Assembly: GCF_025643275.1 (NCBI RefSeq)
Contig: NZ_CP089977.1
Location: forward strand, 1,170,001-1,202,000
Origin: Moraxella nasicaprae
GTDB lineage: Bacteria > Pseudomonadota > Gammaproteobacteria > Pseudomonadales > Moraxellaceae
DNA length: 32,000 nucleotides
Direction: 5' to 3'
In this document: piece after piece, positions 10,090 to 25,598 of the stretch
How the letters are laid out: each line of letters starts with the position of its first letter
Numbering within the stretch: the stretch's first letter is position 1
Notes under the pieces: model-generated
What the model saw: the letters and a program-made list of their open reading frames with translations, nothing else
What the model was told of the DNA's origin: nothing
The model's database searches: none
Made by a program: the position numbers and the translations under genes

Positions 10090-10371
10090 TTAGTGTGCGA
10101 TGCTTTCAAGGCGTTTGGCAAGCTGAACATCACGACTTTGTACAGCAGATTGCTCAGGGTCGCCAATGCGAACAGTCAGGACATTATGGTCATTTTGCCA
10201 TACAGGATAATGTTCCAAACTTTGGGCAGAAAATGCCCCACGCACCATAAAACTGATGGCATCGCTAAACTCTGCAAAGGTATAAGTCTTGACTAAGCTG
10301 TTGCCGTCTTTTGACCACTCAGGTAGGCTTTCTAGTTGTAGGGCAACTTGGTCGGCGGTAAGGCTACTCAT
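10090..10371 (-). CDS. pterin-4-alpha-carbinolamine dehydratase-like protein
   Basis: 93 aa. The layout (LPEWS...L.KTYTF.EF..AISFM...A..AQ...HYPVW.N..N.L.V.I) follows the PCD/DCoH family pattern. Confidence 0.7.
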   Translation of the reverse strand: MSSLTADQVALQLESLPEWSKDGNSLVKTYTFAEFSDAISFMVRGAFSAQSLEHYPVWQNDHNVLTVRIGDPEQSAVQSRDVQLAKRLESIAH

Positions 10372-10430
10372 ACATGTTCCTAAATTTTGCTAAAAAAATT
10401 GGGTTTATTATGGGCTATTTTGGCAAAAAA

Positions 10431-10703
10431 TCAAGCCAATAACTGCTGATATTCTGTTTTTTTATCGATGTACGCTGCCACAAAGCTGCAACTTGGCACG
10501 ATTTTTTTGTGATGTTGCTGGGCGTATTCTAGGGCAAATTTGACCAAAGCAGAACCAATGCCACGACCGCCAAGCTCAGATGGAACGATGGTGTGGTTAT
10601 AATTGAGCGTATCTTCATTGAGAACCTCGTAGCTTAAATAAGCGGTATGTCCATCAATGGTGGTCTCAAATCTTTGGGTGGTGGGGCTGTGAGTGATGTG
10701 CAT
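10431..10703 (-). CDS. small GNAT-family N-acetyltransferase (YjdJ-like)
   Basis: 90 aa. The GRGIGSALVKFALEYA acetyl-CoA-binding motif is followed by the KIVPSCSF segment typical of the short YjdJ-type GNATs. Confidence 0.7.
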   Translation of the reverse strand: MHITHSPTTQRFETTIDGHTAYLSYEVLNEDTLNYNHTIVPSELGGRGIGSALVKFALEYAQQHHKKIVPSCSFVAAYIDKKTEYQQLLA

Positions 10704-10794: not shown

Positions 10795-11260
10795 ATGGAT
10801 AAAAAGACAAAAAATGATTACCCAACTTTAAAAGTCATCACACTTTATCCGCTATTAGGTGGCATTATTGGCGGTTTGCCCATTACATTAACGGTTGTTA
10901 TTGGAATATTGATAAGAGCAAGATTGGAACTCTATTTTTGAAATGTTATGGGCAAGTGTTGCAGTGACTTTTTTAGCAGGTCTTATTCCATCGGCATTGG
11001 CGGGGATTTTGCTGGCTTATTATAAGATTAGGGTTTTACATAAAGCAAATTATTTACAAGCATTCTTTATTGGTTGGCTTGCTACTTTTTTACCGACAAT
11101 GATTTTGGTAATACTGGCAAATATTGATGTGCTGTTTGAGTGGCAAATGCTGGATATTCTGTTTGGCTTGGTTGTATCTATGGTGGCAGTTGCTATTTTT
11201 TCATTATTAGGAGGTTTAACATCAACTCTTCTTGCTAAATTTATTTTGCCAAAATATTAA
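10795..11260 (+). pseudogene. paralog 1 of a tandem 4-TM membrane-protein family, split by a +1 frameshift
   Basis: The ATG at 10795 gives MDKKTKNDYPTLKVITLYPLLGGIIGGLPITLTVVIGILI... and stops at 10939-10941. The family continues in the +1 frame (open from 10916; track ORF 10943..11260) to the shared C-terminus LLAKFILPKY. It is collinear with copies 2 and 3 only if the frames are joined near 10910-10920. Confidence 0.5.
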
Positions 11261-11272
11261 CAGGATAATTTT

Positions 11273-11719
11273 ATGAATAACAATAATAAAAACAAATACC
11301 CAACCTTAAAAGTCATCACGCTTTATCCATTGTTAGGCGGACTGGTGGGCGGAATGCCATTATTGATTTTTGCGGTACTTGCTTTCTTTTTCTATGATTT
11401 TGTGGGAAAAAATCAAATCTTGCTTTTTATTGTTGTAGTTTGGGCGACTGGCTTTGTTCCTGCATTATTGACAGGCATTGTCTTAGCTTATTTTAAAATA
11501 AAAATACTTAAATCCGATGATTATTTTAAAACATTTTGGATAGGTTTTGGGGTTACTTTTGTTTGTTGGTTAATTATTAATATTAAAAGCACTTTTTATA
11601 AGCTAAATGAAAGTTTGGTTTCAGGGATTTTATCGGTGATTTTTTCTCACTTGGTATTTGCCCTAATTGGTGGAATATCATCAGCAATTCTTGCTAAATT
11701 TATTTTACCAAAATCTTAA
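11273..11719 (+). CDS. paralog 2 of the tandem 4-TM membrane-protein family
   Basis: 148 aa with about four hydrophobic helices. N-terminus is MNNNNKNKYPTLKVITLYPLLGG and C-terminus is ILAKFILPKS. Confidence 0.6.
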   Translation: MNNNNKNKYPTLKVITLYPLLGGLVGGMPLLIFAVLAFFFYDFVGKNQILLFIVVVWATGFVPALLTGIVLAYFKIKILKSDDYFKTFWIGFGVTFVCWLIINIKSTFYKLNESLVSGILSVIFSHLVFALIGGISSAILAKFILPKS

Positions 11720-11732
11720 AAAGGAAAATTTT

Positions 11733-12182
11733 ATGAACAATAATAAAGAAAACAAATACCCAACTTTAAAAGTCATCACACTTTATCCATTATTGGGAGG
11801 TGTTATATATTGTGCAATTGTTTTATCAATAATGTACCCAATGATATTAAGTGAGGGTGTTAAATTTTCATTAGAGTATTTTTATTTTCATTTAATGGGA
11901 TTTTCTTTTATTGGTTTTATCTTAAATTTAATCATCAGTTTTATTTTTATTATTCTTAAAATTAAAACCATCAATAAAAATTATGCTAAAATTTTTGGTA
12001 TAGGTTTTGTGGTTTACTTTTTGTCAAGTTTTAGATTTTTTTATCCCAATATGATACCAAATATTGTATTTATTCTTGTTTGTGGTTTGCTAGGTGGCTT
12101 GTTATCAACCATTTTAGCCAAATTTATTTTACCAAAATCCCAAAATAAAACACCTTGCCCAAACCCAAAAATAATGCGATAA
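11733..12182 (+). CDS. paralog 3 of the tandem 4-TM membrane-protein family
   Basis: The track ORF starts at 11667 inside copy 2. The ATG at 11733 (MNNNKENKYPTLKVITLYPLLGG), preceded by AAGGAAA, aligns with the starts of the other copies. The C-terminus ILAKFILPKS carries a short extra tail. This copy is the most AT-rich. Confidence 0.6.
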   Translation: MNNNKENKYPTLKVITLYPLLGGVIYCAIVLSIMYPMILSEGVKFSLEYFYFHLMGFSFIGFILNLIISFIFIILKIKTINKNYAKIFGIGFVVYFLSSFRFFYPNMIPNIVFILVCGLLGGLLSTILAKFILPKSQNKTPCPNPKIMR

Positions 12183-12243: not shown

Positions 12244-13905
12244 ATGGCTCAATACATCTACACGATGAACAAAGTCTCAAAAATCATTCCGCCTAAACGG
12301 GAGATTTTAAAGGACATTTCACTCTCCTTTTTCCCAGGGGCAAAAATTGGCGTACTGGGTCTAAACGGTGCAGGTAAATCCACCCTGCTACGCATTATGG
12401 CAGGCGTGGACACCGAGTACAATGGCGAGGCACGCCCCCAAGCAGGCATTAAGGTCGGCTATTTGCCCCAAGAACCCCAGCTTGACCCCAATAAAACCGT
12501 GCGTGAAAATGTAGAAGATGGCGTGCGTGAAGCCCTAGACGCCCTTGACCGTCTCAACCAAATCTATGCTGAGTATGCCGAGCCTGATGCTGATTTTGAT
12601 AAATTGGCTGCCGAGCAAGGCAAAATGGAGGACATCATTCAAGCGTGGGACGCTCACAACCTAAACACTCAGCTTGAAAAAGCCGCCGATGCCCTACGCC
12701 TACCGCCTTGGGACGCTGATGTTTCTAAACTGTCAGGGGGCGAAAAACGCCGTGTCGCCCTGTGCCGTCTGCTCCTGTCTAAGCCTGATATGCTCCTGCT
12801 TGACGAGCCGACCAACCACCTTGATGCTGAGAGTGTGGCGTGGCTTGAAAGATTTTTAAAGGACTATTCTGGCACGATTGTGGCGATTACCCACGACAGA
12901 TATTTTCTTGACAATGTCGCCGAGTGGATTTTGGAGCTGGACCGTGGCTATGGCTATCCTTATCAAGGCAACTACACCGAGTGGCTAGAACAGAAAAACA
13001 AACGCCTAGAACAAGAGCAAAAGCAAGAAGAAGCCTTTGCCAAAGCCCTAAAACAAGAGCTTGAATGGGTACGCAAAAACCAAAAAGGTCAGCAAGCCAA
13101 ATCCAAGTCTCGCCTAGAACGCTTTGAAGAGATGAACTCTCGTGAGTTCCAACAGCGAAATGAGACAGCAGAAATCTACATTCCACCAGGACCAAGACTG
13201 GGTAATAAAGTCATTGAAGTCAAAAACATCTCCAAATCCTTTGGCGACCGCCTGCTTTATGAAAACCTATCGTTCACCGTGCCACCAATGGCGATTGTCG
13301 GTATTGTCGGTCCAAATGGGGCTGGTAAAACCACGCTGTTTAATATGATTACAGGCAAAGACACGCCCGATACAGGCTCGGTGGAAGTCGGCGAGAGCGT
13401 CAAAGTCGCCTATGTCGGTCAGGTACGTGATAATCTTGACGACAAAAAAACGGTGTGGGAAGAGGTGTCGGACGGTCTTGATATGATTACCGTGGGCGAA
13501 TATACCACGCCAAGCCGTGCCTACATTGGTCGCTTTAACTTTAAAGGGCAAGACCAACAAAAACTGGTTGGCAACTTATCAGGCGGTGAACGCAATCGCT
13601 TACAGCTTGCTAAGACCTTAAAGCAAGGAGCGAATGTGATTTTGCTTGACGAACCCTCCAACGACCTTGATGTGGAGACCTTGCGTGCCTTAGAAGATGC
13701 CATTGAAGTCTTCCCCGGTACGGTAATGGTCGTCTCACACGACCGCTGGTTCTTAGACCGTATTTGTACGCATATTTTGTCGTTTGAAAATGAACAGCCT
13801 GAGTTTTTTGACGGCAACTACACCGAATACGAAAAATGGCGTAAAGAGCGACTGGGAGCAGATGCCACGCCCAAGCGTATGAAGTATAAGAAGATTGGGG
13901 GTTGA
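12244..13905 (+). CDS. ettA: energy-dependent translational throttle protein EttA (ABC-F ATPase)
   Basis: 553 aa. The N-terminus MAQYIYTMNKVSKIIPPKREILKDISLSFFPGAKIGVLGLNGAGKST is nearly identical to EttA/YjjK. It has two ABC cassettes (LSGGEKRR / GPNGAGKTT / LSGGERNR) and no TM domains. Confidence 0.93.
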   Translation: MAQYIYTMNKVSKIIPPKREILKDISLSFFPGAKIGVLGLNGAGKSTLLRIMAGVDTEYNGEARPQAGIKVGYLPQEPQLDPNKTVRENVEDGVREALDALDRLNQIYAEYAEPDADFDKLAAEQGKMEDIIQAWDAHNLNTQLEKAADALRLPPWDADVSKLSGGEKRRVALCRLLLSKPDMLLLDEPTNHLDAESVAWLERFLKDYSGTIVAITHDRYFLDNVAEWILELDRGYGYPYQGNYTEWLEQKNKRLEQEQKQEEAFAKALKQELEWVRKNQKGQQAKSKSRLERFEEMNSREFQQRNETAEIYIPPGPRLGNKVIEVKNISKSFGDRLLYENLSFTVPPMAIVGIVGPNGAGKTTLFNMITGKDTPDTGSVEVGESVKVAYVGQVRDNLDDKKTVWEEVSDGLDMITVGEYTTPSRAYIGRFNFKGQDQQKLVGNLSGGERNRLQLAKTLKQGANVILLDEPSNDLDVETLRALEDAIEVFPGTVMVVSHDRWFLDRICTHILSFENEQPEFFDGNYTEYEKWRKERLGADATPKRMKYKKIGG

Positions 13906-13979
13906 TTTAGCCTTCAATGGTAATAACATGCCCATATTTTTTTATGGGTATGTTTTTAAATACAATCTAAGGTGTATAT

Positions 13980-15116
13980 ATGATAATAAAGTCTGCTGAA
14001 GTTATTGGTTTAAATGGTTTGAATAATCACATTAAATTAGATTTTAATCGTGATTTAAATATTATCACAGGTCGCAATGGCTCTGGCAAAACCAATATTT
14101 TAAAGTTAATTTGGTATGTAATAAGTGGAAATATTGAAGTTGCTTTAAGAGAAATTAATTTTTCAAAAATTAAAATCGTTACAGATAAATATATTTGTAC
14201 TGTTAGTAAAATAGATACAGAGACATGTCAGGTTGCTTGGCAATGGAATGGCTCTAAAGATATTGAATTGTTTGAAGATGTTGAGGAAGATAGAGTTAGT
14301 AGTTTGGTGGTTCGTGTAAGACCTGCTGAGTATATTCCAAATAATCGATTAATAGAACATGGCGCATCAATATTTTTACCAACATTCCGACGTATAGAAG
14401 GTGGTTTTTTAACAAAACATAAAATTAGTAGTGCTACCGGCAGAATTTTACCTAGTATTAAAGGTAGTGCTATTGAAGATGCTTTAAATAATATATCTGG
14501 GCAATTATCAAATGGTTCTCATAGTTTTGTATCCTCTTTAAGTACTGCAGATATTGAATTATTAGTTATAAAAAAACATTCTGAATTATCTGAAGAAATA
14601 TCACAACTTCAACAGAAAACTTCGCAAGATATACAAAATAGAATTAAAGAATCTACAGAAGAAGAATCGTCTAATATTTTGCAAGAAGTAAAATCTCAAA
14701 TGGAAAAATTGGAAATTATTAGAAAGAATACTATGCAACCATTTGATACTTTTAAGGAACAGGTCTTTAAATTTATTAGTTATGGCGGTATTAAGCTAGG
14801 TTCTAAAAAAGAAAGTTTAAGTTTAGGCGATAGTGCTAGTGCAATTAATTCGGATTTACTCTCTGCAGGCGAAAAACAGATGCTAAGTTTTTTAGCCTAT
14901 AATGCTTTTTATCAAGATACTATTTTCATTATTGATGAGCCAGAATTAAGTTTACATGTAGATTGGCAGAGAATCTTATTTCCAACTTTATTAAGACAAA
15001 ATTCTAGCAATCAATTTATTGTTGCAACTCATTCTCCATTTATTTATGCAAAATACCCTGATAAAGAATTAACTTGGGTTGATGATCGAGGAGATTGTAA
15101 TGGAGAAGAGCAATAA
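13980..15116 (+). CDS. ABC/SMC-type (AAA_21/AAA_15-like) ATPase, AriA/OLD-ATPase-like
   Basis: 378 aa with Walker A GRNGSGKT (res 31-38), a charged coiled-coil-like insert (ELSEEISQLQQKTSQDIQNRIKESTEEE...), ABC signature LSAGEKQML, Walker B IFIIDEPELSLH and H-loop VATHSP. It is strongly AT-rich compared with ettA. Confidence 0.85.
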   Translation: MIIKSAEVIGLNGLNNHIKLDFNRDLNIITGRNGSGKTNILKLIWYVISGNIEVALREINFSKIKIVTDKYICTVSKIDTETCQVAWQWNGSKDIELFEDVEEDRVSSLVVRVRPAEYIPNNRLIEHGASIFLPTFRRIEGGFLTKHKISSATGRILPSIKGSAIEDALNNISGQLSNGSHSFVSSLSTADIELLVIKKHSELSEEISQLQQKTSQDIQNRIKESTEEESSNILQEVKSQMEKLEIIRKNTMQPFDTFKEQVFKFISYGGIKLGSKKESLSLGDSASAINSDLLSAGEKQMLSFLAYNAFYQDTIFIIDEPELSLHVDWQRILFPTLLRQNSSNQFIVATHSPFIYAKYPDKELTWVDDRGDCNGEEQ

Positions 15117-15880
15117 TGGCAAAAGTTGATTTAGATGAGATGATTTCTACATTAAATCATTCTGATTTACCAGCAATTATTGTTGAAGGAAAAGATGATA
15201 TTATTATTTACCGAAAATTAGAAGATGAGATAAGCAATGTTATTGTAACTCCTGTTGGTGGTAGAGCAAATGTATTAAAAATATTTCAAGAAACAGTCAA
15301 CCCTAATGGGCGTTTGTACAATAAAAATATTGTATTTATTGCAGACCAAGACATTTGGATTAATATTGGAATTCCTGATGAGTTTAAAAATCAGAAACTT
15401 ATTTTCACAAGTGGATATTCTATTGAAAACGATGTTTTTATTGACTACTGCTGTCAAAAAATGATAGACGATAATCCTGATATTAAAGCCAATTTCAATC
15501 AAGATAAAGAAAAGTTTATTGATTGGTATGTTTTGGCGTTACAGGCAACCATTGATAAATATAATCATGATTTAAATAAATTAGATTGTGCAGAAAACTT
15601 AACTTTATCGGAATTCAGAAAAATATCTCATAACCCTGAAAGGGTGTTTAAGCAATATGAAGACATGATTAAATTACTGGAAAATGAAATTCTCAATCAT
15701 CAATTAAAACAAAGTTTGATAGATGATTTCCCCTTATCCATTAGAGGAAAATCTCTAATGGCGTTATTTACAAGCAATATGAAAAATGGCATAAGAACTA
15801 TGCAAATTTTTCAAAATATTGCCGTTCGACCCAATGACCGAATTAACCGTATTTTTGATGATGTCAAAAGATTATTTTAG
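15116..15880 (+). CDS. DUF4435 / Toprim-like protein, AriB/OLD-nuclease-like
   Basis: 254 aa. The start overlaps the ATPase stop by 1 nt (TAATG). It has the DUF4435 hallmarks IIVEGKDDIIIY (Toprim Glu), FIADQDIW (DxD) and GYSIEND. Confidence 0.75.
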   Translation: MAKVDLDEMISTLNHSDLPAIIVEGKDDIIIYRKLEDEISNVIVTPVGGRANVLKIFQETVNPNGRLYNKNIVFIADQDIWINIGIPDEFKNQKLIFTSGYSIENDVFIDYCCQKMIDDNPDIKANFNQDKEKFIDWYVLALQATIDKYNHDLNKLDCAENLTLSEFRKISHNPERVFKQYEDMIKLLENEILNHQLKQSLIDDFPLSIRGKSLMALFTSNMKNGIRTMQIFQNIAVRPNDRINRIFDDVKRLF

Positions 15881-15886
15881 GTAAAG

Positions 15887-16042
15887 AAAATTTCACCCTT
15901 AACCAATTTTGAACCCCGTATTCTCACTCGTGGTAAGAGTTATTTAAACAATATTTTGCAATTAAAAAATAACTTTAATAACTATTGGATGACATTGGTT
16001 AAAGGCACATACTGTTATTAAGTCAAAGTTGCATTAACATAA
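15887..16042 (+). pseudogene. decayed 5' fragment of a SWIM-zinc-finger-type protein gene
   Basis: Just past the DUF4435 stop, in the same frame: KISPLTNFEPRILTRGKSYLNNILQLKNNFNNYWMTLVKGTYCY*VKVALT*. This follows the N-terminal pattern of SWIM/SNF2-associated proteins (F..RIL.RG..Y...g.V..L......a.V.Gs..Y.V.l). It contains two in-frame stops and the rest of the gene is absent. Confidence 0.35.
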
Positions 16043-16287
16043 AATGGTTGGCGCAGTGTGTTAATTTAACAAATGCATTGCAGTTGATTTCAAAAAATTA
16101 ATAAAAATCACCAACGCAAACCTATTTTGCAAGACTAAACAGAAACTTGGAAGGATAAATTTATAAAAAATGACCATCAATTAAGAAATTAAGTCAGATT
16201 GGTGATTACTATTAATTAAGAATAAGATATCATAGGAATTTTTCCTATAGACCAAAAATAGCATTATGTTACACTAAGGAGCGAACA

Positions 16288-16692
16288 ATGTTAATTAACA
16301 ATTATCAAATTGGCACAATTTTTACTAATCAAGATTTAATGGATACTTTTAAGGTTTCCAATGCAGGTGGTATGCGTCGCAGCAAACAAGCCAATTGCCT
16401 AATTTTAATCAATAAAACTGATTCTATTTATAAAAATTATTGGCAAGAGGATATTTTTTATTACATAGGTATGGGTTTAAAAGGCGACCAAGATATTAAT
16501 TTTGCACAAAATAAAACATTGGTAGAATCTGTTTTTAATGGTGTGCAAATTTTGCTATTCAATAGTTCAAAACCCAATCATTATCAATATGCTGGCGAAG
16601 TGTGTTTGGCGGGGGAGCCTTTTTATCAAATGCAACAAGATGAAGATAATAAAAATAGGAAAGTAGTAGTATTTCCATTAAAAAATGTCTGA
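16288..16692 (+). CDS. standalone SRA/YDG-like (PUA-fold) putative modified-cytosine-binding protein
   Basis: 134 aa with an AAGGAG SD 6 nt upstream. The pattern G.IF.....L.....VS.AGGMRRS....CLILI......Y.NYW..D.FYY.GMGLKGDQ....QNK.L.......V.ILLF.......YQYAGEV...... resembles the SRA/YDG modules of type IV restriction enzymes. No nuclease domain is attached. Confidence 0.5.
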   Translation: MLINNYQIGTIFTNQDLMDTFKVSNAGGMRRSKQANCLILINKTDSIYKNYWQEDIFYYIGMGLKGDQDINFAQNKTLVESVFNGVQILLFNSSKPNHYQYAGEVCLAGEPFYQMQQDEDNKNRKVVVFPLKNV

Positions 16693-17011
16693 TTTTGGTT
16701 GGTAATATCCTATACGGCTATATGGCGTGGAACTTAGGCAATACCAAAGTATTTTGTCCGCAATCGGTAGATTTCTTTGATAATGCGGGTGATAATAAAG
16801 AAAAATCTGAAAAATGCCTAGTCATTGATGGCAAATATTTACAACCCATCAGTGCAAAATATGTGTCTGCTTGGTAATAATGATGTCAATTTCTGCTTGG
16901 CACTGGTTATAGATGCTTTTGTTGCTTGCTTTATCTGTCACGCCATCGTTGTGTTATGTGGCTTGTCGAAAATGGCGATGGTCTATGCTGTGGGCTTATG
17001 TGATGGCATAG

Positions 17012-17299
17012 ATGGTGTGCTATTTGTTGCTTGTGGCGGCGGCAAAGGCAACCGATGGCTATCTGTATGCTGTTTTACAAAATTATGATGTTGATGGCGA
17101 TGGCTCATTTGATGGGCATGAAATCAACCCAGCACAACAACAAGCAATGGACGCTGTCACCAGCGATACAGGTAGGGCGATGGTGGTTTTAACAGGTGTG
17201 TTTATCTCGCCAATACTGACAGGGATTGGCTTTGGCTTGACTCATTTGTTGGTGCAGGGCTATGTTTGGTTTACCTCAAAAATCAGCCGTTTAGATTGA
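17012..17299 (+). CDS. hypothetical small membrane protein with an EF-hand-like DxDxDG loop
   Basis: 95 aa containing YDVDGDGSFDGHEI (the canonical Ca-binding loop pattern) and a C-terminal TM helix (AMVVLTGVFISPILTGIGFGLTHLLV). The start lies immediately after a stop, and upstream ORF fragments in other frames leave the gene model uncertain. Confidence 0.3.
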   Translation: MVCYLLLVAAAKATDGYLYAVLQNYDVDGDGSFDGHEINPAQQQAMDAVTSDTGRAMVVLTGVFISPILTGIGFGLTHLLVQGYVWFTSKISRLD

Positions 17300-17420
17300 T
17301 GTTAATGATATCAAAAATCTTTGTTGTAATTTTATTGCCAGATGATTGATTTGTTTTATTATCTGATGGGGCTATGCTAAAATGCCACATCAGTAAAACA
17401 CATTAACAAGGCAAAATATC

Positions 17421-18383
17421 ATGACAAATACAACCTATCAGCAAGTATTTCACAGGGTGGTGGACATCGAGATTCAAGCATTGCAATCGCTGACAAAGGC
17501 GGTCAATGAGAATTTTGATAAAGCCTGCCAGACGATTTTGGCGTGCCAAGGTCGGCTCATCATCACAGGCATGGGTAAGTCGGGCTTGGTCGGTCGAAAG
17601 ATGGCGGCGACGATGGCATCGACGGGTACGCCTGCATTTTTTGTTCACCCAGGCGAGGCAGGGCATGGCGATTTGGGCATGATTATCAAGGGTGATGTGG
17701 TACTGGCCATTTCCAATTCGGGCAATAGCGACGAAATCAATGTACTGCTGCCTGTCATCAAACGCCTAAACATTCCACTCATCAGCATCAGTAAAACACT
17801 CAATGGTCGTTTGCCCAAAGAGGCAGACATCGCTTTGACTTTGGGCGAGTTTGAAGAAGCGTGCCCATTGGGGCTGGCACCAACTTCTAGCACGACTGCC
17901 ACGATGGCACTGGGCGATGCCTTGGCGATTGCATTGCTTGAAGCCCGTGGTTTTAGGTCGGAGGATTTTGCCTTGTCGCACCCCGCAGGCTCGTTGGGTA
18001 AGCGACTTTTGACCGATGTGTCAGGCATCATGAAAACAGGTCATGACATTCCGATGGTGGCAGGCGAGACCAGCGTGATGGACGCTTTGTTTGAGATTAC
18101 TGAGAAGCGATTGGGCATGACGGTGGTTTATGATGATGGTTTGGGTTATGGTATTTTGACCGATGGCGATATTCGTCGCTTGCTTAGCCAAAAACAAGAC
18201 ATGAATCAGCCCATCAAACAAGTGATGAAAACCAATCCTTTGACCACCAGTTCGACCATGATGGCAACCGACGCCCTCAAATTAATGCAAGACAAGAGCG
18301 TCAATCAGCTATTAGTGGTCGATGAAGATAAATTGGTTGGGGTATTGGCATTGCGTGATTTGGTGCAGGCGGGGATTGGTTGA
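17421..18383 (+). CDS. kdsD: arabinose-5-phosphate isomerase (SIS domain plus tandem CBS)
   Basis: 320 aa with SIS motifs ITGMGKSG and FVHPGEAGHGDLGMI and a C-terminal CBS pair. KdsD (LOS Kdo) cannot be distinguished from KpsF (capsule) by sequence alone. A possible extended -10 (TGcTAAAAT, 17375-17383) lies upstream. Confidence 0.9.
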   Translation: MTNTTYQQVFHRVVDIEIQALQSLTKAVNENFDKACQTILACQGRLIITGMGKSGLVGRKMAATMASTGTPAFFVHPGEAGHGDLGMIIKGDVVLAISNSGNSDEINVLLPVIKRLNIPLISISKTLNGRLPKEADIALTLGEFEEACPLGLAPTSSTTATMALGDALAIALLEARGFRSEDFALSHPAGSLGKRLLTDVSGIMKTGHDIPMVAGETSVMDALFEITEKRLGMTVVYDDGLGYGILTDGDIRRLLSQKQDMNQPIKQVMKTNPLTTSSTMMATDALKLMQDKSVNQLLVVDEDKLVGVLALRDLVQAGIG

Positions 18384-18763
18384 TGAATATTTGATAATTT
18401 TATTATCAATTTACGACTAACAAATATCCAACAAAAATCAAAGGTCATTTTTTTGGGTTTATTATAATGATATTGGTCTGGGTAATAAGACAGTGTGTTT
18501 TTGTTACTTTGGGTAAACTTCATTGTCTTTCTTAGGGTAATTTGCTATTATGTATGGCATAGTCCTATTGTGGTTTTGGTGCTTAACTGGTTGTGCAGAG
18601 ATAGAAAGTAGTGACCTTGGTTGATTTTTAGAACAATGAATTGATGTAAAACCAATGGTTAATTAGTGCTTCTTGATCGGCTTGAAAATTCCTTATTGCG
18701 AGTGATATGGATTTTGTCAGACGCATAGAAATCACATCTCTTTTTTGCTTGGATAATTAGGTT

Positions 18764-19894
18764 ATGAAAAAAATTCTATTTGTAACAGGCACTCGTGCAG
18801 ACTTTGGCAAAATCAAAAGCCTGATGTCTGTAATTGAGCAATCATCACAGTTTGAATTGCATGTCTTAATAACAGGGATGCATATGATGAAACGCTATGG
18901 TTCAACCTACCTAGAAGTAAAAAAAGAAAATTATACCAATACCTATTTTACTTCCAATCAAAACGAAAACGAGCCAATGAGTTCGGTGCTGGGCAATACC
19001 ATTACCATTATTACTCGTCTTGTCAATGCCATTTCGCCAGATTTGATTGTGGTACACGGTGATAGATTGGAGGCGTTGGCAGGGGCAACTGTTGGGGCAT
19101 TGAGCCATATTCGTGTATGTCATATTGAAGGTGGAGAGCTGTCTGGTACCATTGACGACTCCATTCGCCATTCGGTTAGTAAATTATCTCACATTCATAT
19201 GGTGGCAAATGAAGAGGCTAAGGCTCGTTTGCTGCAATTAGGCGAAAACGAAAAAACGATCTTTATCATCGGCTCGCCAGACCTTGATGTGATGAATTCA
19301 CAAAAATTACCAACATTACAAGACGCAAAAGAGCATTATGGTATTGATTTTGAGGAATATTCAGTGGTAATGTTCCACCCTGTTACTAGTGAAGAACACG
19401 AAATCAAAAAGTACACCCAGAATTTATTCAAGGCATTGGAACAAAGCCAAAAAAATTATGTAGTGATTTATCCAAATAATGATACGGGTAGTGCCAAGAT
19501 TTTGAATGTTATTGCTGATTATGAAGAGCATCCGAATTTTAAATGCTATCCGTCTATCAATTTTGAACATTTTCTAACCTTATTAAAAAACGCCCAATTT
19601 ATTATTGGTAATTCTAGTGCGGGCGTGCGTGAAGCCCCATTTTATGGCTTGCCAAGTATCAACATTGGCACCCGCCAAAATGCCAGATTTCGTGGCAAAA
19701 CCGTCATTGATTGTGGCTATGACACCCAAGCGATTTTGTCCGCCATTGAGTGTGTGAATGATGTGCATACCGAAAAATCTACTTGGTTTGGCGATGGCAG
19801 CAGTACAGAAAAATTTGCCGAATTTGTTGCTAGCAAGGAATTTTGGGATATTCCTGTCCAAAAAGTCTTTGTGGACATCAATCAAGGAAGTTAG
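18764..19894 (+). CDS. neuC: UDP-N-acetylglucosamine 2-epimerase (hydrolysing), sialic acid pathway
   Basis: 376 aa. MKKILFVTGTRADFGKIKSLM...ITGMHMMKRYGSTY...HGDRLEALAGATVGAL...CHIEGGELSGTIDDSIRHSVSKLSHIH is collinear with NeuC/SiaA (CssA). Confidence 0.93.
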   Translation: MKKILFVTGTRADFGKIKSLMSVIEQSSQFELHVLITGMHMMKRYGSTYLEVKKENYTNTYFTSNQNENEPMSSVLGNTITIITRLVNAISPDLIVVHGDRLEALAGATVGALSHIRVCHIEGGELSGTIDDSIRHSVSKLSHIHMVANEEAKARLLQLGENEKTIFIIGSPDLDVMNSQKLPTLQDAKEHYGIDFEEYSVVMFHPVTSEEHEIKKYTQNLFKALEQSQKNYVVIYPNNDTGSAKILNVIADYEEHPNFKCYPSINFEHFLTLLKNAQFIIGNSSAGVREAPFYGLPSINIGTRQNARFRGKTVIDCGYDTQAILSAIECVNDVHTEKSTWFGDGSSTEKFAEFVASKEFWDIPVQKVFVDINQGS

Positions 19895-19896
19895 TT

Positions 19897-20571
19897 ATGT
19901 ATATCGCAGTCATTCCTGCTCGTGGCGGTTCAAAGGGTATTAAAGATAAAAATTTACAACTGGTGGGTGGTGTGTCGTTGGTGGCTCGTGCCATCATTGA
20001 AGCCAAAAAAGTAGATAAAATTAGCCAAATTATTGTCTCAACTGACAGTCAAAAAATCGCTGATGAAGCGGCAAAATATGGAGCAAATGTCCATTTTCGC
20101 AGTGAAAAAACTGCCAGCGATACCGCCAAAACCATTGAAGTGATTGAAGAGCTGGTGCAAGATATGAGTTTGCAGGACGATGTGTGTGTTTTGCTCCAAC
20201 CAACCAGCCCTTTGCGAATGAGCGAGCATATTTTGCAAACAATTGAATTATTTGAAAAAAATAATCATCGAGGCTCATCAATCACCGTAACACCAAGCGA
20301 ACATCACCCCTTCAAAATGATAATAATGGGCGATGATGGCAAGTATCAAGCGGTGCGAGCATTGGCAGACTTAGAAATGCCACGCCAAGCCTTGCCAGAG
20401 GCTTTTCGTATCAATGGAGCGGTTTATGTTAAACGCTTTACCGATTTGGTGGCTGAACAATCATTTTTTGGCAAGCCACAAGCCTTTGTCCAGATGGACG
20501 AGAAATCTTCAATAGACATTGATAACATCGCTGATTTGGTATTGGCAAATCAGTATTTTGAACAAATTTAG
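19897..20571 (+). CDS. neuA: N-acylneuraminate cytidylyltransferase (CMP-sialic acid synthetase)
   Basis: The track ORF starts at 19843, overlapping neuC. The ATG at 19897 gives MYIAVIPARGGSKGIKDKNL, the canonical NeuA/CssB N-terminus, and LLQPTSPLR is present. About 224 aa, the short (Neisseria-type) form without the esterase domain. Confidence 0.9.
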   Translation: MYIAVIPARGGSKGIKDKNLQLVGGVSLVARAIIEAKKVDKISQIIVSTDSQKIADEAAKYGANVHFRSEKTASDTAKTIEVIEELVQDMSLQDDVCVLLQPTSPLRMSEHILQTIELFEKNNHRGSSITVTPSEHHPFKMIIMGDDGKYQAVRALADLEMPRQALPEAFRINGAVYVKRFTDLVAEQSFFGKPQAFVQMDEKSSIDIDNIADLVLANQYFEQI

Positions 20572-20592
20572 GTTATGAATTAAGGTAATAGT

Positions 20593-21645
20593 ATGACGAC
20601 CACCAAAAAGCCAAGTTTTAAAATCGCTAACCGTATGGTTGGCTATGATTATGAACCACTTGTGATTGCCGAGATTGGCATTAACCACGAAGGTTCGCTA
20701 GAAGTCGCCAAACAGATGGTAGATGCCGCTTATGAGGCAGGTGCTGAAGTCGTCAAGCACCAAACGCACGTGGTAGAAGACGAAATGTCAGACGAGGCAA
20801 AAAAAGTAATCCCTGGTAACGCTGATGTGTCTATCTATGAGATTATGGAGCGTTGCGCATTAAACGAAGAAGACGAAACCGCCCTAAAAGAGTATGTAGA
20901 AAGTAAGGGTATGATTTTTATTAGTACACCGTTTTCTCGTGAGGCGGCTTATCGTCTCGAAAGAATGGGTGTGGAAGCTTATAAGATTGGTTCTGGCGAA
21001 TGCAATAACTATCCATTGATTAAGCTGGTGGCATCATTTGGCAAACCAATGATTGTCTCAACAGGCATGAATAGCATTGAAAGTGTGAAAAAATCTGTAC
21101 AAATTATGGAAGAAGCTGGCGTACCATACGCCCTACTTCATTGCACCAATGTGTATCCAACACCGCCAGAACTGGTGCGTCTGGGTGCGATGGAGGAGTT
21201 GCAAGAAGCCTTCCCAAATGCAGTCATTGGTTTGTCTGACCACTGTGTAGATAATTATGTATGTATGGGTGCGGTTGCTAGCGGTGCTTGTATCCTAGAA
21301 AGACACTTTACTGACTATTTTGATCGTCCAGGCCCTGACATTAACTGCTCAATGGACGGCAAGGGTATGGCAGAACTGATTGAAGCAAGTAAGCAAATTG
21401 CCAAAGCTCGTGGCGGTAAAAAAGGTGCGGTTGCCGAAGAGCAAGTAACCATTGATTTTGCTTTTGCGTCTGTGGTGGCTTATAAAGACATCAAGGCAGG
21501 CGAGGTCTTTACTGAAGAAAATCTGTGGGCGCGTCGTCCAGGTACAGGCGAGATTTTGGTAACCGAATATGATGATTTGCTTGGCAGAGTTGCTGCCACA
21601 GACATCAAAAAAGGCGAGCAACTTAAAAAAGCTCAGGTAAAATAA
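20593..21645 (+). CDS. neuB: N-acetylneuraminate synthase
   Basis: 350 aa with [28 protein letters not shown], a TIM-barrel NeuB domain and a C-terminal SAF/antifreeze-like domain ([16 protein letters not shown]). Confidence 0.93.
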
Positions 21646-21648
21646 CAC

Positions 21649-22719
21649 TTGAAACTGGGGTTTGTATTTCAAAAAGACTCTCATCTAAAAGCGGTTTTAG
21701 CGACTGCTTTTAGATTGAGAAAGGATTATTCGCAAGCAAAAATACAGTTTTTTGTGATTGATGCACCGTCGGACAGTGTGCAATGGTTGCCTGATGGCGT
21801 GGTGTTTTTGTCTGTGGAAAATCTAACACCGATGCAGGATTGTGATTATTTGGTTTGTTGTTTGGGTGGTTATTTACTCAATAAAATCATCGGACAGTAT
21901 CACCAAACCCAAACCAAAATCATCGCATTGTTTCCAGGAATTGTTAGTCATTATCAGCTCGATGCTTTTATCACCCGTTTTAATGCTGACCAAGTGTGGT
22001 TAAATTGCCCTGCTGATGTGCAGTTTTATGCCAAATTGTGCCAAGTTTTTGGTGTGCCAAATAATGGTGTACTGTACGGTGCTTCTTGGTTTTTGCAAAA
22101 AAACAATCAATCAATAAGCGATGGTAGCACCATCTTTTTTGAGCAGACGCAAATTATCAACAATCAAGCGACCGCCCAAAAGATCGAGTCGCAACTGATT
22201 GGTCTGATTAAAAAAAATCCAAACATACCATTTATTTATAAATTGCGTGAAAATATCCATAATGAATATTTGGTAACAATGCGAGAACGCCTTGCTCAAT
22301 TTGCTAATGTTCAAATGGTAAGCGTGCTAAATGATAGCGATGTGCAAAAAGCAGATACTTTTTTGTCTATTTCGTCATCAGCGATTGTGGAAGGATTGTT
22401 GCTTGGTAAGCAATGTTATTTGTTGGATAAAGAGTATCTTGATGATGATGCACGAGAGTTTTTTGGGCAAAGTAATTTGTTCTTGAGTGGCAATCTAAGC
22501 CCAAACCCAAATTGGCTAACAGACCGGGTGTTTGCCCCTGTGTCTACGGTAATATTGGAGACAATCTCTAAGCAGTCACCCAAAAAATTTCATCAGCGCA
22601 GTTTAATAGTGGTTGTAGTCAAGATGGTTTTGTTTGCGTGGCGTTATCCAAAATTATTTTTCCTGTTTGGCAAGTCAGACAGAATCAGGGCCATAAAAAA
22701 ATCACTAGAATATTTATAG
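21649..22719 (+). CDS. capsule-locus protein of unknown function, GT-B-like, in the position NeuE occupies in E. coli K1 (between the sialic acid synthesis genes and the polysialyltransferase)
   Basis: 356 aa with a TTG start 3 nt after the neuB stop. Its stop immediately precedes the next gene. It has an ISSSAIVEGLLLGK block reminiscent of GT-B capsule transferases and a hydrophobic C-terminal segment (LIVVVVKMVLFAWRYPKLFFLF). The functional call is weak. Confidence 0.5.
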   Translation: MKLGFVFQKDSHLKAVLATAFRLRKDYSQAKIQFFVIDAPSDSVQWLPDGVVFLSVENLTPMQDCDYLVCCLGGYLLNKIIGQYHQTQTKIIALFPGIVSHYQLDAFITRFNADQVWLNCPADVQFYAKLCQVFGVPNNGVLYGASWFLQKNNQSISDGSTIFFEQTQIINNQATAQKIESQLIGLIKKNPNIPFIYKLRENIHNEYLVTMRERLAQFANVQMVSVLNDSDVQKADTFLSISSSAIVEGLLLGKQCYLLDKEYLDDDAREFFGQSNLFLSGNLSPNPNWLTDRVFAPVSTVILETISKQSPKKFHQRSLIVVVVKMVLFAWRYPKLFFLFGKSDRIRAIKKSLEYL

Positions 22720-24096
22720 GTGAATATGAATAATCAGATGCTAGAACTTCAAAGTGGATATGCACAGACATTTGTAGACTATCTAAAAGCACCTCAGCAG
22801 GTCAAAAATTTATTTGTAGTTACCCATTTGGGGCAGTTAAAACAAATGGAGTCTTTGATTCAACAAAAGCAGCTAAAGAACAATTTGTTGGTTATTTTGT
22901 ATACAATGAAAAATCTTGATACGCCTAAGATGGTCGTAGATAACATTTCGCAAAATTGTTTTTCTGGTGCGATAACTGTTGAGATTCCTGTTGGTATCAA
23001 TAAAATAAGTTACAGCAAGCTCAACGAAGTTCAAAAAACATATGGCAAGATTTTAAATGCGATAAATTTTGATGATTTGTATGTGAATAGTTTTGAAGGT
23101 CATTATGCTATTCTTTTAAATATGGCAAAGAATAAAAAACGGGGTACAATCCTTGTTGAGGAGGGTACGGCAATTTATAAGCCAATTAGTGAGATGCCCA
23201 CTCAACAATACTCATTGTCCAAATATAAAAAAGTAGATTTTAAATTTCTCAAATCTCATTTTATGACCACGATTGGTGAAACACAAATTTTTAAGAAAGG
23301 GGTCAAAATAAAGAAAAATATCAAAAAGCCAACAGATATTTTTCCAGTCTATAAAAAAGTTGGGATTAAGCAGAGCGATATTTTAGATGGCAAGTTATTA
23401 AAGCAGATAAAAAATTTTGCTTTGAGTATTGATAAAGATTTGGGAGTGCAGCGTGATTTTATACGAATTGGCGGAAATGGGTATCTAAAATCAGCTTTGT
23501 CTGCTTATGTGGATTTTGATAAAGTGTATGCTAGTTCACCAAAATTACTGGCCGATACCTTTAAAAATTCTGTCTTTGAAAGATTCTTTATCTATGATTG
23601 GCTAGATGAGGAAAGTGTCGCTTATGCAAAATCATTGATCGCAAAATATAAAATTGGACATAACGATATTTTATTCTTAAATCAAAGATATGAACTTGAT
23701 TTAAGACTGTATATGACTGAGCTAAGAGCGTTGCTTTTGAGTATGGCAGACCAAGAGAACAAGATATTTGTAAAACTTCACCCAAAAGACGGGGACAGGG
23801 TTAGAGTATTATTTAATTATCTTGAACAACAGTCAGATGGTCGTATTGTTATTATAGAAGAGCAAGATTTTCTGGTGGAGTCTTTACTTAAGGTCAGTGG
23901 CATCAAAAAAGTGGTTGGAATTACCTCTAGCGTCTTGATGTATGCCCATTTGATTAATCAAGATGTAGAGGCGATATCTATCGCTAATTATTTGATAGAT
24001 AGATTGTCTAGTTATTCAGAATGCCAAAAAGGTTTGGAGGATATTTCTATACACCTACACATTATTTATAAGTTTGATTCTATCCAAGTTATTTGA
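22720..24096 (+). CDS. GT38-family (NeuS/SiaD-like) polysialyltransferase
   Basis: 458 aa (GTG 22720, or ATG 22726). NLFVVTHLGQLKQMESLI, ILVEEGTAIYKP, FVKLHPKDGDR and GITSSVLMYA match my recollection of the spaced motifs of E. coli K1 NeuS (NIFIISNLGQLKKAESFV / LIEEGTGTYK / HPK / SS). Confidence 0.8.
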   Translation: MNMNNQMLELQSGYAQTFVDYLKAPQQVKNLFVVTHLGQLKQMESLIQQKQLKNNLLVILYTMKNLDTPKMVVDNISQNCFSGAITVEIPVGINKISYSKLNEVQKTYGKILNAINFDDLYVNSFEGHYAILLNMAKNKKRGTILVEEGTAIYKPISEMPTQQYSLSKYKKVDFKFLKSHFMTTIGETQIFKKGVKIKKNIKKPTDIFPVYKKVGIKQSDILDGKLLKQIKNFALSIDKDLGVQRDFIRIGGNGYLKSALSAYVDFDKVYASSPKLLADTFKNSVFERFFIYDWLDEESVAYAKSLIAKYKIGHNDILFLNQRYELDLRLYMTELRALLLSMADQENKIFVKLHPKDGDRVRVLFNYLEQQSDGRIVIIEEQDFLVESLLKVSGIKKVVGITSSVLMYAHLINQDVEAISIANYLIDRLSSYSECQKGLEDISIHLHIIYKFDSIQVI

Positions 24097-24114
24097 ATTT
24101 GTGCGAGATTTGCT

Positions 24115-25596
24115 ATGTTGAAAGAAGTTAATTTAAATTCATTGCGTCCACTTGACAATCCAAAAGAGAGTACAAAATATTTTTTGGAAAAAGATGATTT
24201 TTACCAATATGTTTGGGCATTGAAATGGAATTATGAAGATACCACTGATTTAATTCAAAAGTTTTATGCTCGTGGAGATGGTCGGTCATTCTTTAAAGCT
24301 TTGTATTTGATTTACCATCTTGACGGAGCTGACAAGGCATATCAGTTTATTAAAACAGAAGGCGTTTTGTCTGATGTGATTGCGGCAGATTCCTACTATA
24401 TGGAAATGTTGATTTTAATATTGGTTATTTATTCCAAAGTGGGAAATGCTAACGACATTGACTTTGTGCTAAATCTAATGAATGCACAATTAACTCGAAG
24501 CTTGCCAAGAACTTTGGGGATTCCAGATATTTATACCCACGCATCTTTGCACGCTTTAATTGCTAGAGCTATCAGACAGGCTGGCGATATTTCTTTATCT
24601 AATACAAATGATTTGATTGTCATGGATGTACAAGATGGACAATTGGTATTAGAGGATGTGTCTGGCAAAAAAATTGAATTACAGAATAATCACGATATTT
24701 CTATTGCGGCAATGATGAGGGTTAGAAACGAGAGAGATAATATTGGGGTTGTTATTGAAGCTGTTTATAAGTATGTTGATGTGATTATCTTATATGATGA
24801 TTGTTCAACTGATGATACTGTCGATATCGTCAAGTCTTATCAGCAAAAAGGCATTAATATTGATTTGATTGAGGGTCAAGAATGGTTATTTAATGAAGCA
24901 TTAATTCATCAAATCATTGTCAAAAGAGGTAGAGAGATCGGCGCAACACATTTTGTACAGCTTGATGCTGACGAGATTTTTTCTAGTGCTCTAAACCCTA
25001 CTGTATTCAGAGAATTGATGCAACAAATGCAACCTGGCGATGTTCTAGCATTGCCATGGCTAAATGTCAATGACGATATTAGTGGGTATTATTCGGAAGA
25101 AAAAATAGTTGGGATTATGCCTTCTCGAGGATTGAAGCGTTATAAAGACATTGCTTTTGCTGATGATGGTTTTACCAATTTTGGAGAATGGCAGTATGCA
25201 CATGTAAATACCTCTCCTTTTGTGTATGTGCGTAGATTTTTAAGTTTGTCCGATGAATTTTCGTTGATACATTTGGAGCAAATTAATTTGCTAAATTACA
25301 TTGCAAAAAAAGATTGGTATAGAATAAGAGCTTATGCACAAAATGGGAAGTTGCCATCTGACCCTTATGCTGATATTCGCTTGCCTTTACTGCAGTTGCA
25401 AGAATCTATTAGTTATTTTGATAATCCTGTGCATTGTGGAGATGATCATATTATTGAGATTTTTAAGCAATTGGCAATGGCTAGAATTGAGTCTAATACC
25501 CAAGGCTGTCAAATGTATCCAGATATTAAAAAGCAGATGTATCTTAATTATGATGCTTTTATCAAGAATAACACCAATACCATTTCGGAGAAGTAA
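24115..25596 (+). CDS. GT2-family glycosyltransferase with a roughly 195-aa helical N-terminal extension
   Basis: 493 aa. The GT-A core is ISIAAMMRVRNERDNIG...VIILYDDCSTDDT...VQLDADEIF (DxD). I do not recognise the N-terminal third. Confidence 0.7.
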   Translation: MLKEVNLNSLRPLDNPKESTKYFLEKDDFYQYVWALKWNYEDTTDLIQKFYARGDGRSFFKALYLIYHLDGADKAYQFIKTEGVLSDVIAADSYYMEMLILILVIYSKVGNANDIDFVLNLMNAQLTRSLPRTLGIPDIYTHASLHALIARAIRQAGDISLSNTNDLIVMDVQDGQLVLEDVSGKKIELQNNHDISIAAMMRVRNERDNIGVVIEAVYKYVDVIILYDDCSTDDTVDIVKSYQQKGINIDLIEGQEWLFNEALIHQIIVKRGREIGATHFVQLDADEIFSSALNPTVFRELMQQMQPGDVLALPWLNVNDDISGYYSEEKIVGIMPSRGLKRYKDIAFADDGFTNFGEWQYAHVNTSPFVYVRRFLSLSDEFSLIHLEQINLLNYIAKKDWYRIRAYAQNGKLPSDPYADIRLPLLQLQESISYFDNPVHCGDDHIIEIFKQLAMARIESNTQGCQMYPDIKKQMYLNYDAFIKNNTNTISEK

Positions 25597-25598
25597 GA

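Follow-up and report, generated by a model that had tools for sequence, protein, structure and literature searches.

A two-gene locus directly downstream of ettA

We analyzed a pair of overlapping genes in Moraxella nasicaprae, located in a 32,000-nucleotide (nt) stretch of contig NZ_CP089977.1 (positions 1,170,001 to 1,202,000 of the forward strand; hereafter the window, in whose numbering all positions are given). Gene 1 (378 amino acids, aa) encodes an ATP-binding cassette (ABC) ATPase and gene 2 (254 aa) a predicted nuclease with DUF4435/Toprim motifs. Both open reading frames (ORFs) start with ATG and follow ettA, which encodes the energy-dependent translational throttle (Table 1). The junction between the two genes reads gcaaTAATGgca, with a TAATG overlap in which the last A of the TAA codon of gene 1 is also the first base of the ATG of gene 2, and a Shine-Dalgarno sequence (AAGGTG) is found 5 nt 5´ of the gene 1 start codon. 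The G+C content (GC) was 0.296 for gene 1, 0.289 for gene 2 and 0.296 for the region 13906-16846, compared with 0.489 for ettA and 0.498 for kpsF in the flanks, and the low-GC insert begins at the ettA stop codon. These values, together with the exact coordinates and junction, bore out a first-pass annotation made from the sequence alone, which had described two ORFs with a TAATG overlap in an AT-rich insert directly after ettA.

Exact-sequence look-ups identified EttA (UXZ04094.1), gene 1 as an ‘AAA family ATPase’ (UXZ04095.1), gene 2 as a ‘DUF4435 domain-containing protein’ (UXZ04096.1), a ScoMcrA-like SRA protein (UXZ04097.1) and KpsF (UXZ04100.1). Neither direct repeats in the flanks nor tRNA genes nor an integrase, which would mark a classical integrative element, were found at the locus. 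An Rfam scan of positions 13700-17500 yielded zero matches, and the pair is therefore without a retron-type or other known RNA partner there.

In Pfam searches, gene 1 scored above the curated cut-offs for AAA_21 (72.5 bits, 8e-20) and AAA_15 (62.6 bits, 6.5e-17) and also above the thresholds for SMC_N and AAA_23, while no NCBIfam model reached its cut-off. The best PADLOC match was AriA (7.8e-26), followed by PtuA (7e-21), mad3 (3.2e-20) and AbiLi (3.7e-14). In line with this ranking, the best sequence match in the PDB was AriA from Escherichia coli (464 aa, 3.3e-20). When an AlphaFold2 (AF2) model of gene 1, with a mean predicted local distance difference test (pLDDT) score of 77.8, was compared with known structures by Foldseek, the top 16 matches were AriA chains (E ~1e-16, template modelling (TM) score ~0.55), with retron and Septu PtuA proteins next (E 1e-10 to 1e-8). 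Further, a profile of 37 gene 1 homologues aligned end to end by hhalign (99.6%, E 1.7e-24) with the E. coli-type AriA encoded on an IMG/VR contig (L082), which is 67% identical to B185 AriA over the C-terminal 129 residues.

The catalytic motifs of gene 1 are conserved: K37, D319-E320, LSAGEKQ and the H-loop histidine H351 were invariant in the 37 homologues. Helices comprising residues 190-224, 227-251 and 253-269 of the AF2 model are placed between Walker A and the signature, and motifs and model thus agree with the earlier description of gene 1 as an ABC ATPase with a coiled-coil insert at this position. Conservation in the family was lowest at residues 91-110 and 151-160, and the model is disordered or of low confidence at these places (pLDDT below 50 at residues 146-162 and 57 on average at residues 101-110). 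According to the hhalign alignment, the loops 91-110 and 146-162 lie approximately at the positions of the pore loops of E. coli AriA.

Gene 2 reached 36.7 bits against Pfam DUF4435 (cut-off 27; 5e-9), which places it in this family, and AriB was its sole PADLOC match (1.5e-10). A phmmer search of the PDB with the single sequence returned nothing; a profile of 43 homologues returned AriB (8UX9_A) alone as a significant match (E 0.0048). The predicted structure of gene 2 (pLDDT 94.9) also matched AriB alone in Foldseek (E 4.7e-5, probability 1.00, TM 0.44), with the full length aligned and an identity of 13-14% in the fold alignment. When the gene 2 family was compared by hhalign with 32 E. coli-type AriB proteins (96%, E 4e-9), the match comprised the Toprim half alone, over 132-136 columns. 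The VEGKDD, DQD and YSIEN motifs, from which the first-pass annotation had derived a DUF4435/Toprim signature, were all present and invariant in the 43 homologues, among which E24, G25, D28, D77, D79, G100-Y-S-I-E-N-D106 and G211 were invariant or nearly so. In E. coli-type AriB proteins, C-R-G-H-T is conserved (at least 90% for C and R, with G, H and T invariant) at a place similar to that of R210-G-K-S in the C-terminal half of gene 2; the two motifs resemble each other, yet no tool aligned them.

The published rule for the detection of PARIS systems asks for at least 32 bits against AAA_15 or at least 27 bits against AAA_21, with an adjoining DUF4435 gene of at least 27 bits (PMC9122126, Rousset et al. 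2022). The AAA_21, AAA_15 and DUF4435 scores of the two adjacent, overlapping genes exceed all three values. PADLOC, PDB, fold comparison and detection rule agree on the pairing of an ATPase with a DUF4435/Toprim protein as PARIS, which was also the first-pass reading, and profile, structure and context evidence support the assignment of the two genes as a predicted PARIS-family (class 4 OLD-like) module.

Table 1. Features of the M. nasicaprae window in and around the gene 1-gene 2 pair
Feature	Position	Strand	Evidence
ettA (energy-dependent translational throttle), conserved left flank of the hotspot	12244..13905	+	Pfam ABC_tran x2 and ABC_tran_Xtn; named EttA
Possible ettA terminator: hairpin CCCATA-N6-TATGGG with a T-rich stretch after it	13931..13948	+	Read from the sequence; weak evidence
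Gene 1, AriA-like ABC ATPase, 378 aa	13980..15116	+	ORF list, Pfam, PADLOC, PDB, fold, hhalign
Walker A GRNGSGKT, G31-T38, K37 (= E. coli AriA K39)	14070..14093	+	PDB alignment; invariant among homologues
Variable middle cassette, residues 53-289: beta region, poorly conserved loops (~91-110, ~146-162), coiled coil	14136..14846	+	M. oblonga comparison
ABC signature LSAGEKQ, residues 294-300	14859..14879	+	Motif reading, homologue alignment
Walker B IFIIDE, residues 315-320 (E320 = E. coli E393), and D328-W-Q-R331	14922..14972	+	PDB alignment
Gene 2, AriB-like DUF4435/Toprim nuclease (predicted), 254 aa	15116..15880	+	ORF list, Pfam, PADLOC, profile, fold
Toprim motif VEGKDD, residues 23-28 (E24 = E. 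coli AriB catalytic E26)	15182..15199	+	Profile alignment
Toprim acidic motif D77-Q-D79	15344..15352	+	D77, D79 invariant; aligned to AriB D88-R-E90
GYSIEND, G100-D106	15413..15433	+	Invariant; aligned to AriB GHSLEN
R210-G-K-S, C-terminal helical half	15743..15754	+	G211 invariant; R210, K212, S213 at least 90% conserved
N-terminal remnant of a SWIM-like gene, with in-frame stops	15893..16048	+	tblastn E 8e-10, 43% identity
Gene 3, stand-alone SRA (ScoMcrA-like) protein, 134 aa	16288..16692	+	PF26348, UniRef name, phrog_15103 (3e-31)
C-terminal remnant (75 codons) of a gene for a 458-aa membrane protein, marking where the insert ends on the right	16710..16868	+	tblastn E 9e-14; blastn hit of L116 to 16709-16801

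Compact proteins, strict pairing and sparse distribution

Both proteins are shorter than the deposited E. coli AriA and AriB chains, as had been stated in the first-pass annotation, and these lengths are typical of their relatives: gene 1 homologues were 355-400 aa and gene 2 homologues nearly all 230-260 aa long. In the hhalign comparison with E. coli-type AriA, gene 1 was missing approximately 35 residues after the Q-loop and approximately 25 at the apex of the coiled coil (about 60 in total). These gaps fall in the IS1 and IS2 regions of AriA, defined by Burman et al. as residues 122-180, involved in trigger recognition, and residues 242-289, a coiled-coil expansion that enables hexamer formation. 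With regard to gene 2, precomputed DUF4435 matches were recorded for most compact-clade proteins and not for most E. coli-type AriB proteins, which indicates that the compact form is nearer to the Pfam archetype and that the E. coli protein is the elaborated one.

The suggestion that the pair represents a distinct, minimal subtype was correct in part. The clade is real and its members are consistent in length, and a different trigger or target is plausible for it. However, its novelty had been overstated, since the clade is detected by the standard PARIS rule, matches Pfam DUF4435 more often than E. coli-type AriB does, and belongs to a family in which 11 clades had already been described by Burman et al.

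A hidden Markov model (HMM) of the gene 2 family, employed to search 1.84 billion representatives, matched 1048 clusters (50% identity) at E <=1e-3, of which 410 reached E <=1e-30. A relative of the pair was found in 234 of 185,579 species representatives, distributed over Proteobacteria, Bacteroidota, Poribacteria, Chloroflexota, Verrucomicrobiota and Bacillota, and mobile copies were present on 13 IMG/VR (prophage-like) contigs and on one 28.8-kb plasmid. The pairing is strict. A gene 1 homologue was located directly 5´ of gene 2 in each of 80 genome loci and 13 viral loci, as well as in those related metagenome contigs that reach into the upstream DNA, and both genes occurred in 101 of the 101 loci examined. 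Stop and start codons overlapped by 1 or 4 nt in 59 of 99 loci scored, and 34 more had an ATG within 10 nt. A fusion of both parts in a single gene is rare (P0383, 695 aa, with AAA_21 and DUF4435). Among the neighbours across these loci, no third gene was conserved clade-wide.

This distribution bears on the question of a housekeeping role of the pair in DNA or cell-cycle metabolism, similar to that reported for the archaeal OLD-family ATPase Cran1, a proposal that we consider extremely improbable. According to PMC12796447, at least one OLD-family ATPase apparently acts outside antiviral defence. However, most Moraxella and over 99.8% of the species representatives lack the pair, and its foreign GC, its presence on prophage-like contigs and a plasmid, and its exchange between species are not those of a housekeeping locus.

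Some additional observations were made in the survey. Two further long relatives of gene 2, P0319 (698 aa) and P0367 (692 aa), each matched the gene 2 profile in two separate stretches and had little or no Pfam coverage. In sponge-associated metagenome-assembled genomes (MAGs) of Poribacteria and Caldilineaceae, a recurring context was observed, with a gene of approximately 559 aa upstream and a gene of approximately 275 aa downstream of the compact pair (L034, L039, L040, L048, L053, L054, L057, L069, L070, L073, L074 and L078-L081). Over all loci scanned, five neighbours were type III restriction-modification methyltransferases.

Mosaic gene 1 alleles and the ettA 3´ flank in Moraxella

In M. 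oblonga, the pair is found at the same place, next to an ettA with a nucleotide identity of approximately 92% to that of M. nasicaprae. The gene 1 proteins of the two species were 98% identical over residues 1-52 and 97% identical over residues 290-378, and only 30% identical over residues 53-289. At the nucleotide level, the change was abrupt, from about 90% identity to 40-52% between approximately 14150 and 14850, and gene 2, along with the downstream gene 3, was 96-100% identical. A similar profile was observed for eight metagenomic alleles (P0132, P0133, P0136, P0137, P0139, P0140, P0145 and P0146), the ends of which were 88-99% and the middles 30-32% identical to gene 1. In homologues from other proteobacterial orders, the middles were 40-43% identical and the ends approximately 65% and 82%. 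The conserved ends carry the ATPase motifs and the position of AriB docking, and the presumed sensor part of the family varies as a module. Conversely, on contig L084, identity was approximately 78% for ettA, 97-100% (nucleotide) for gene 1 and 65-70% for gene 2.

The simplest reading of these comparisons would be frequent recombination in which the ‘sensor’ cassette in the middle is shuffled and, less markedly, the nuclease as well, while the ATPase core is retained. In Moraxella, residues 53-289 appear to behave as an exchangeable cassette between deeply diverged alleles. The mosaic pattern fits the proposal by Burman et al. that PARIS pores evolve toward different triggers, and shows swapping within a clade, beyond the clade-level analysis of these authors.

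The site itself is occupied differently from species to species. In every Moraxella locus examined (L105-L117), homology to the window ends at 13901-13909, a few bases from the ettA stop codon. Some strains of M. bovis carry a HEC-01 system at this site, composed of a 411-aa ATPase (PADLOC 9.5e-126) and a DUF4276 protein (8.2e-92), and other strains a Septu system (PtuA 1.8e-128, PtuB 1.9e-46). A Septu-like pair of 500 and 191 aa is present in M. lacunata and a 458-aa membrane protein in M. haemolytica, and M. catarrhalis has no insertion. Moraxella MAGs with one identical EttA carry either a lone 134-aa SRA gene or a 559-aa GmrSD type IV restriction enzyme, and in related metagenomic loci the PARIS-like pair is directly followed by a 595-aa SWIM-like gene. 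As other genes or none are found at the site in M. catarrhalis, M. bovis, M. lacunata and M. haemolytica, the pair is accessory rather than part of the genus core. Its location in a defence hotspot provides the strongest evidence, apart from homology, for the pair as a defence module. In view of the lack of a tRNA gene, an integrase or flanking repeats, cargo turnover probably takes place by homologous recombination in the conserved flanks.

Both the alleles and the site bear on whether the pair could chiefly serve as a selfish addiction cassette of the toxin-antitoxin kind, which keeps the island stable and senses no specific phage signal. PARIS is formally a toxin-antitoxin system, AriA was deposited as ‘AriA antitoxin’, a resemblance to type II toxin-antitoxin systems has been described (PMC13064643), and the AAA_21 family carries the annotation ‘putative AbiEii toxin, Type IV TA system’. 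Nevertheless, deep allelic diversification that is confined to the presumed sensor part, between near-identical ends, is unexpected for an addiction module, and bona fide defence systems fill the slot in sister species; we therefore regard an addiction cassette as quite improbable.

Downstream of the pair, the insert contains one further gene and two relics (Table 1). The first relic corresponds to the N-terminus of the SWIM-like gene, which lies 4 nt after gene 2 in related metagenomic loci (L088-L091; positions 2314-4101 in L088). The 595-aa protein gave a sub-threshold SWIM zinc-finger match and no significant Pfam, PADLOC or PHROG family. As a conserved third component of the pair this gene was rejected, since none of the 80 loci contained a homologue. 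Gene 3, a possible lone reader of modified DNA, is without a nuclease domain and covers only the N-terminal half of the 280-position phrog_15103; relatives with 61-62% identity stand alone after ettA in Moraxella MAGs. It was likewise rejected as a third component, as none of the 80 non-Moraxella loci contains it and it can stand at the hotspot by itself, and is a separate cargo of the same hotspot rather than part of the pair. The second relic, within a small ORF at 16695-16877, is a C-terminal remnant of the M. haemolytica-type 458-aa multi-pass membrane protein, whose gene may have occupied the site first and then been truncated when the insertion took place.

The two relics indicate that cargo turnover and decay occur in this island, and would also be expected if the whole locus were a decaying, non-functional remnant. 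This explanation appears very improbable for gene 1 and gene 2, however, because both ORFs are full length with all family-invariant residues intact, near-identical alleles exist in other organisms, and the coupled junction and the Shine-Dalgarno sequence are preserved.

Several features of the surrounding DNA were recorded separately. A terminator scan called a terminator-like site at 13931..13948 on the minus strand only, the plus-strand hairpin in Table 1 being a by-eye reading, and the site counts of the promoter/terminator scan were not above those of shuffled sequence. Upstream of ettA, positions 10943-12182 contain three tandem paralogous genes for small membrane proteins of 105, 148 and approximately 150 aa, all ending in ILAKFILPK[SY], with a GC of 0.25-0.30; neither of the two that were scanned matched a Pfam model. 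In M. oblonga, one copy is conserved at 95%, blastn homology was detected upstream of ettA in M. bovis and M. lacunata, and the arrangement resembles an array of immunity-like genes. Downstream of the island, positions 17421-28144 comprise kpsF, neuC (UDP-GlcNAc 2-epimerase), neuA (CMP-sialic acid synthetase) and neuB, a sialic-acid capsule locus with a GC of approximately 0.35-0.44, below that of core genes. Genes for a pterin-4a dehydratase and an acetyltransferase are located upstream of ettA on the opposite strand (10104-10699), as is the acetyltransferase gene in M. catarrhalis, and downstream of the hotspot in M. bovis (L105), a difference pointing to an inversion or rearrangement that has one of its breakpoints at the hotspot.

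Proposed mechanism and relation to known systems

Most of the work that dissected PARIS was on one E. coli system, and a Lactococcus system has also been described (PMC13064643). In E. coli, the AriA hexamer is a trimer of dimers that carries three AriB molecules. Residues 1-53 of AriB sit above the ATP sites of the AriA dimer, where AriB helix alpha2 docks and R28 and R31 form salt bridges with AriA D401 and E404 (PMC11464382). The flexible AriA loops 113-124 and 161-174 line the pores that sense Ocr, the system being activated by the phage anti-restriction proteins Ocr and Ptr1/2, and K39 and E393 of AriA are required for the ATP-dependent release of AriB. Freed AriB dimers cut tRNA-Lys, tRNA-Thr and tRNA-Asn, with K60, K64 and R236 contacting the tRNA, and the E26A variant of AriB has no activity (PMC12409363).

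Most of these positions could be traced in the window proteins. The Walker A lysine K39 and the Walker B glutamate E393 of AriA correspond to K37 and E320 of gene 1, and the AriB-docking residues D401 and E404 to D328 and R331, both within D328-W-Q-R331; R331 is invariant among the homologues and of opposite charge to its counterpart. On the side of AriB, docking residues R28 and R31 correspond to K26 and I29 of gene 2, and H29 to the nearly invariant D27. The tRNA-contacting K64 corresponds to R50 (at least 90% conserved), and K60 has no equivalent, as it falls within a 9-residue insertion of AriB. These correspondences indicate conservation of the catalytic machinery and the general docking site, but not of the interface in its details or of part of the surface that holds the substrate.

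By analogy with the E. coli system, we infer complex formation, trigger, target and phenotype of the M. nasicaprae pair as follows. The gene 1 ATPase would dimerise head to tail and keep the gene 2 Toprim nuclease inactive above its ATP sites. A phage protein would bind the variable loops and the coiled-coil part of gene 1, upon which the ATP-bound ATPase would release the nuclease. Once freed, gene 2 would dimerise and cut host nucleic acid by means of a two-metal Toprim site (E24, D77, D79 and E104), the target most probably being one or more tRNAs, and translation and phage growth would be halted. In evolutionary terms, Moraxella probably gained the pair by horizontal transfer into the 3´ flank of ettA, and the pair passes between species by recombination. 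We assign a probability of roughly 0.75 to this reading, in which the pair would be an abortive-infection module of the compact clade with a PARIS-type mechanism.

A number of results weigh against it. The C-terminal half of gene 2 could not be aligned with AriB by profiles, and the full-length fold match was modest (TM 0.44). The E404-R31 salt bridge is not kept, the equivalent residues being R331 and I29, and the segment with K60 is absent from the clade, so that docking geometry and substrate may differ. The approximately 60 residues gone from gene 1 belong to regions that in E. coli aid trigger sensing and hexamer formation. In other phyla, the neighbours of the pair are mostly housekeeping genes, with about 13 of 107 related to defence or mobile elements by the families listed. 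Association with these neighbours is weak evidence, and the comparison of the Moraxella hotspot was much more informative. Finally, neither the solved structures nor the searched literature included a member of the compact clade with experimental data.

Some of these points would also suit a PARIS-like architecture in which the released Toprim protein nicks or degrades phage or host DNA, as P2 Old, Vibrio Old and GajA do, instead of cutting tRNA. That OLD and Gabija Toprim nucleases act on DNA is stated in PMC12392090, and the unalignable C-terminal half of gene 2 and the missing K60-containing segment would be compatible with such a substrate. Against this, neither PADLOC nor Pfam gave gene 2 a match to a Toprim model of OLD or GajA, PF20469 was found in one of 120 homologues, AriB was its sole structural relative, and R50 aligns with the tRNA-contacting K64. 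A DNA target is thus unlikely, and a tRNA-directed PARIS-type mechanism is preferred.

Within this PARIS-type mechanism, the compact clade might constitute a mechanistically distinct variant, with an assembly unlike the hexamer, charge-reversed docking and another substrate, combined with swappable trigger specificity in Moraxella. Gene 1 is missing most of what aligns with IS1 and IS2, and its assembly might therefore differ from the E. coli hexamer. From the alignments, charge-reversed docking might involve R331 of gene 1 and D27 of gene 2, in place of E404-R31. We put this combination forward as a tentative and rather doubtful proposal.

Taken as a kind of result, the findings are unsurprising, as defence hotspots, the diversity of PARIS and variable sensor regions are all established concepts; what they add is a minimal architecture, a set of natural chimeras of the sensor and the hotspot at ettA. 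A minimal version of PARIS, roughly a bare ABC head with a short coiled coil and a bare DUF4435 protein, could reveal the essential parts of the system. The natural chimeras, which combine the same nuclease and ATPase core with middles of 30% identity, offer a test of whether loops and coiled coil set trigger specificity. If this is true, trigger specificity would be naturally swappable here, in a system placed at a dedicated hotspot beside ettA. The hotspot, previously unremarked, is found in a genus of human and veterinary respiratory pathogens, and new systems could be sought in it. Neither the 595-aa SWIM-like cargo gene nor the 458-aa gene, possibly the native occupant, has a significant family assignment.

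In comparison with other known systems, HEC-01, a PADLOC candidate that occupies the same ettA slot in one M. bovis strain, also combines an AAA_15/21 ATPase with an effector. However, this effector is a DUF4276 and not a DUF4435 protein, and neither gene 1 nor gene 2 had its top match to HEC-01 models. AbiL (AbiLi/AbiLii) and MADS (MAD3/MAD4) include two-component modules that pair an ABC ATPase with a Toprim protein, which were grouped with PARIS by Burman et al. AbiL was rejected because the AbiLi match of gene 1 was weaker than that to AriA and gene 2 lacked an AbiLii match, and MADS because gene 1 reached 25.6 bits against the NCBIfam MAD3 cut-off of 420 and gene 2 lacked a MAD4 match. 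No methylase or other MADS gene was found nearby, the neighbours being ettA, the SRA gene and the kpsF/neu capsule genes.

The class 1/2 OLD proteins (P2 Old, Ts OLD 6P74 and GajA) likewise combine an ABC ATPase with a Toprim domain, and gene 1 matched GajA (5.5e-5) and Ts OLD (6.8e-3) weakly by way of the ATPase C-lobe. Assignment to these classes was rejected, since ATPase and Toprim are fused there, in contrast with the two ORFs found here, and gene 2 had no PF20469 match; Gabija additionally requires GajB. Septu and the retron Ec78-Ec83 PtuA-PtuB modules employ a related AAA_15/21 ABC ATPase that sequesters a nuclease, and M. bovis and M. lacunata carry Septu at this ettA site. Here, rejection was based on the partner, which is an HNH protein (PtuB) in Septu and a DUF4435 protein without HNH in the window, and on the NCBIfam PtuA score of gene 1 (50 bits vs. 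a cut-off of 500).

The closest system is PARIS of the E. coli B185 P4-like satellite (PDB 8UX9, 8V45-8V49), which provided the best sequence and fold matches for both window proteins. It likewise consists of two genes, with the ATPase first and the Toprim/DUF4435 gene second, and the gene overlap is also present in its close relative L082. Walker A, Walker B, signature, H-loop, Toprim glutamate and acidic motifs are common to both systems. The differences are found in the length of the proteins (464 and 308-316 aa for the deposited chains vs. 378 and 254 aa here), in the sequence of the ATPase, which is approximately 24% identical to gene 1 as measured on the L082 relative, and in the location, a satellite in E. 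coli and a chromosomal hotspot in M. nasicaprae.

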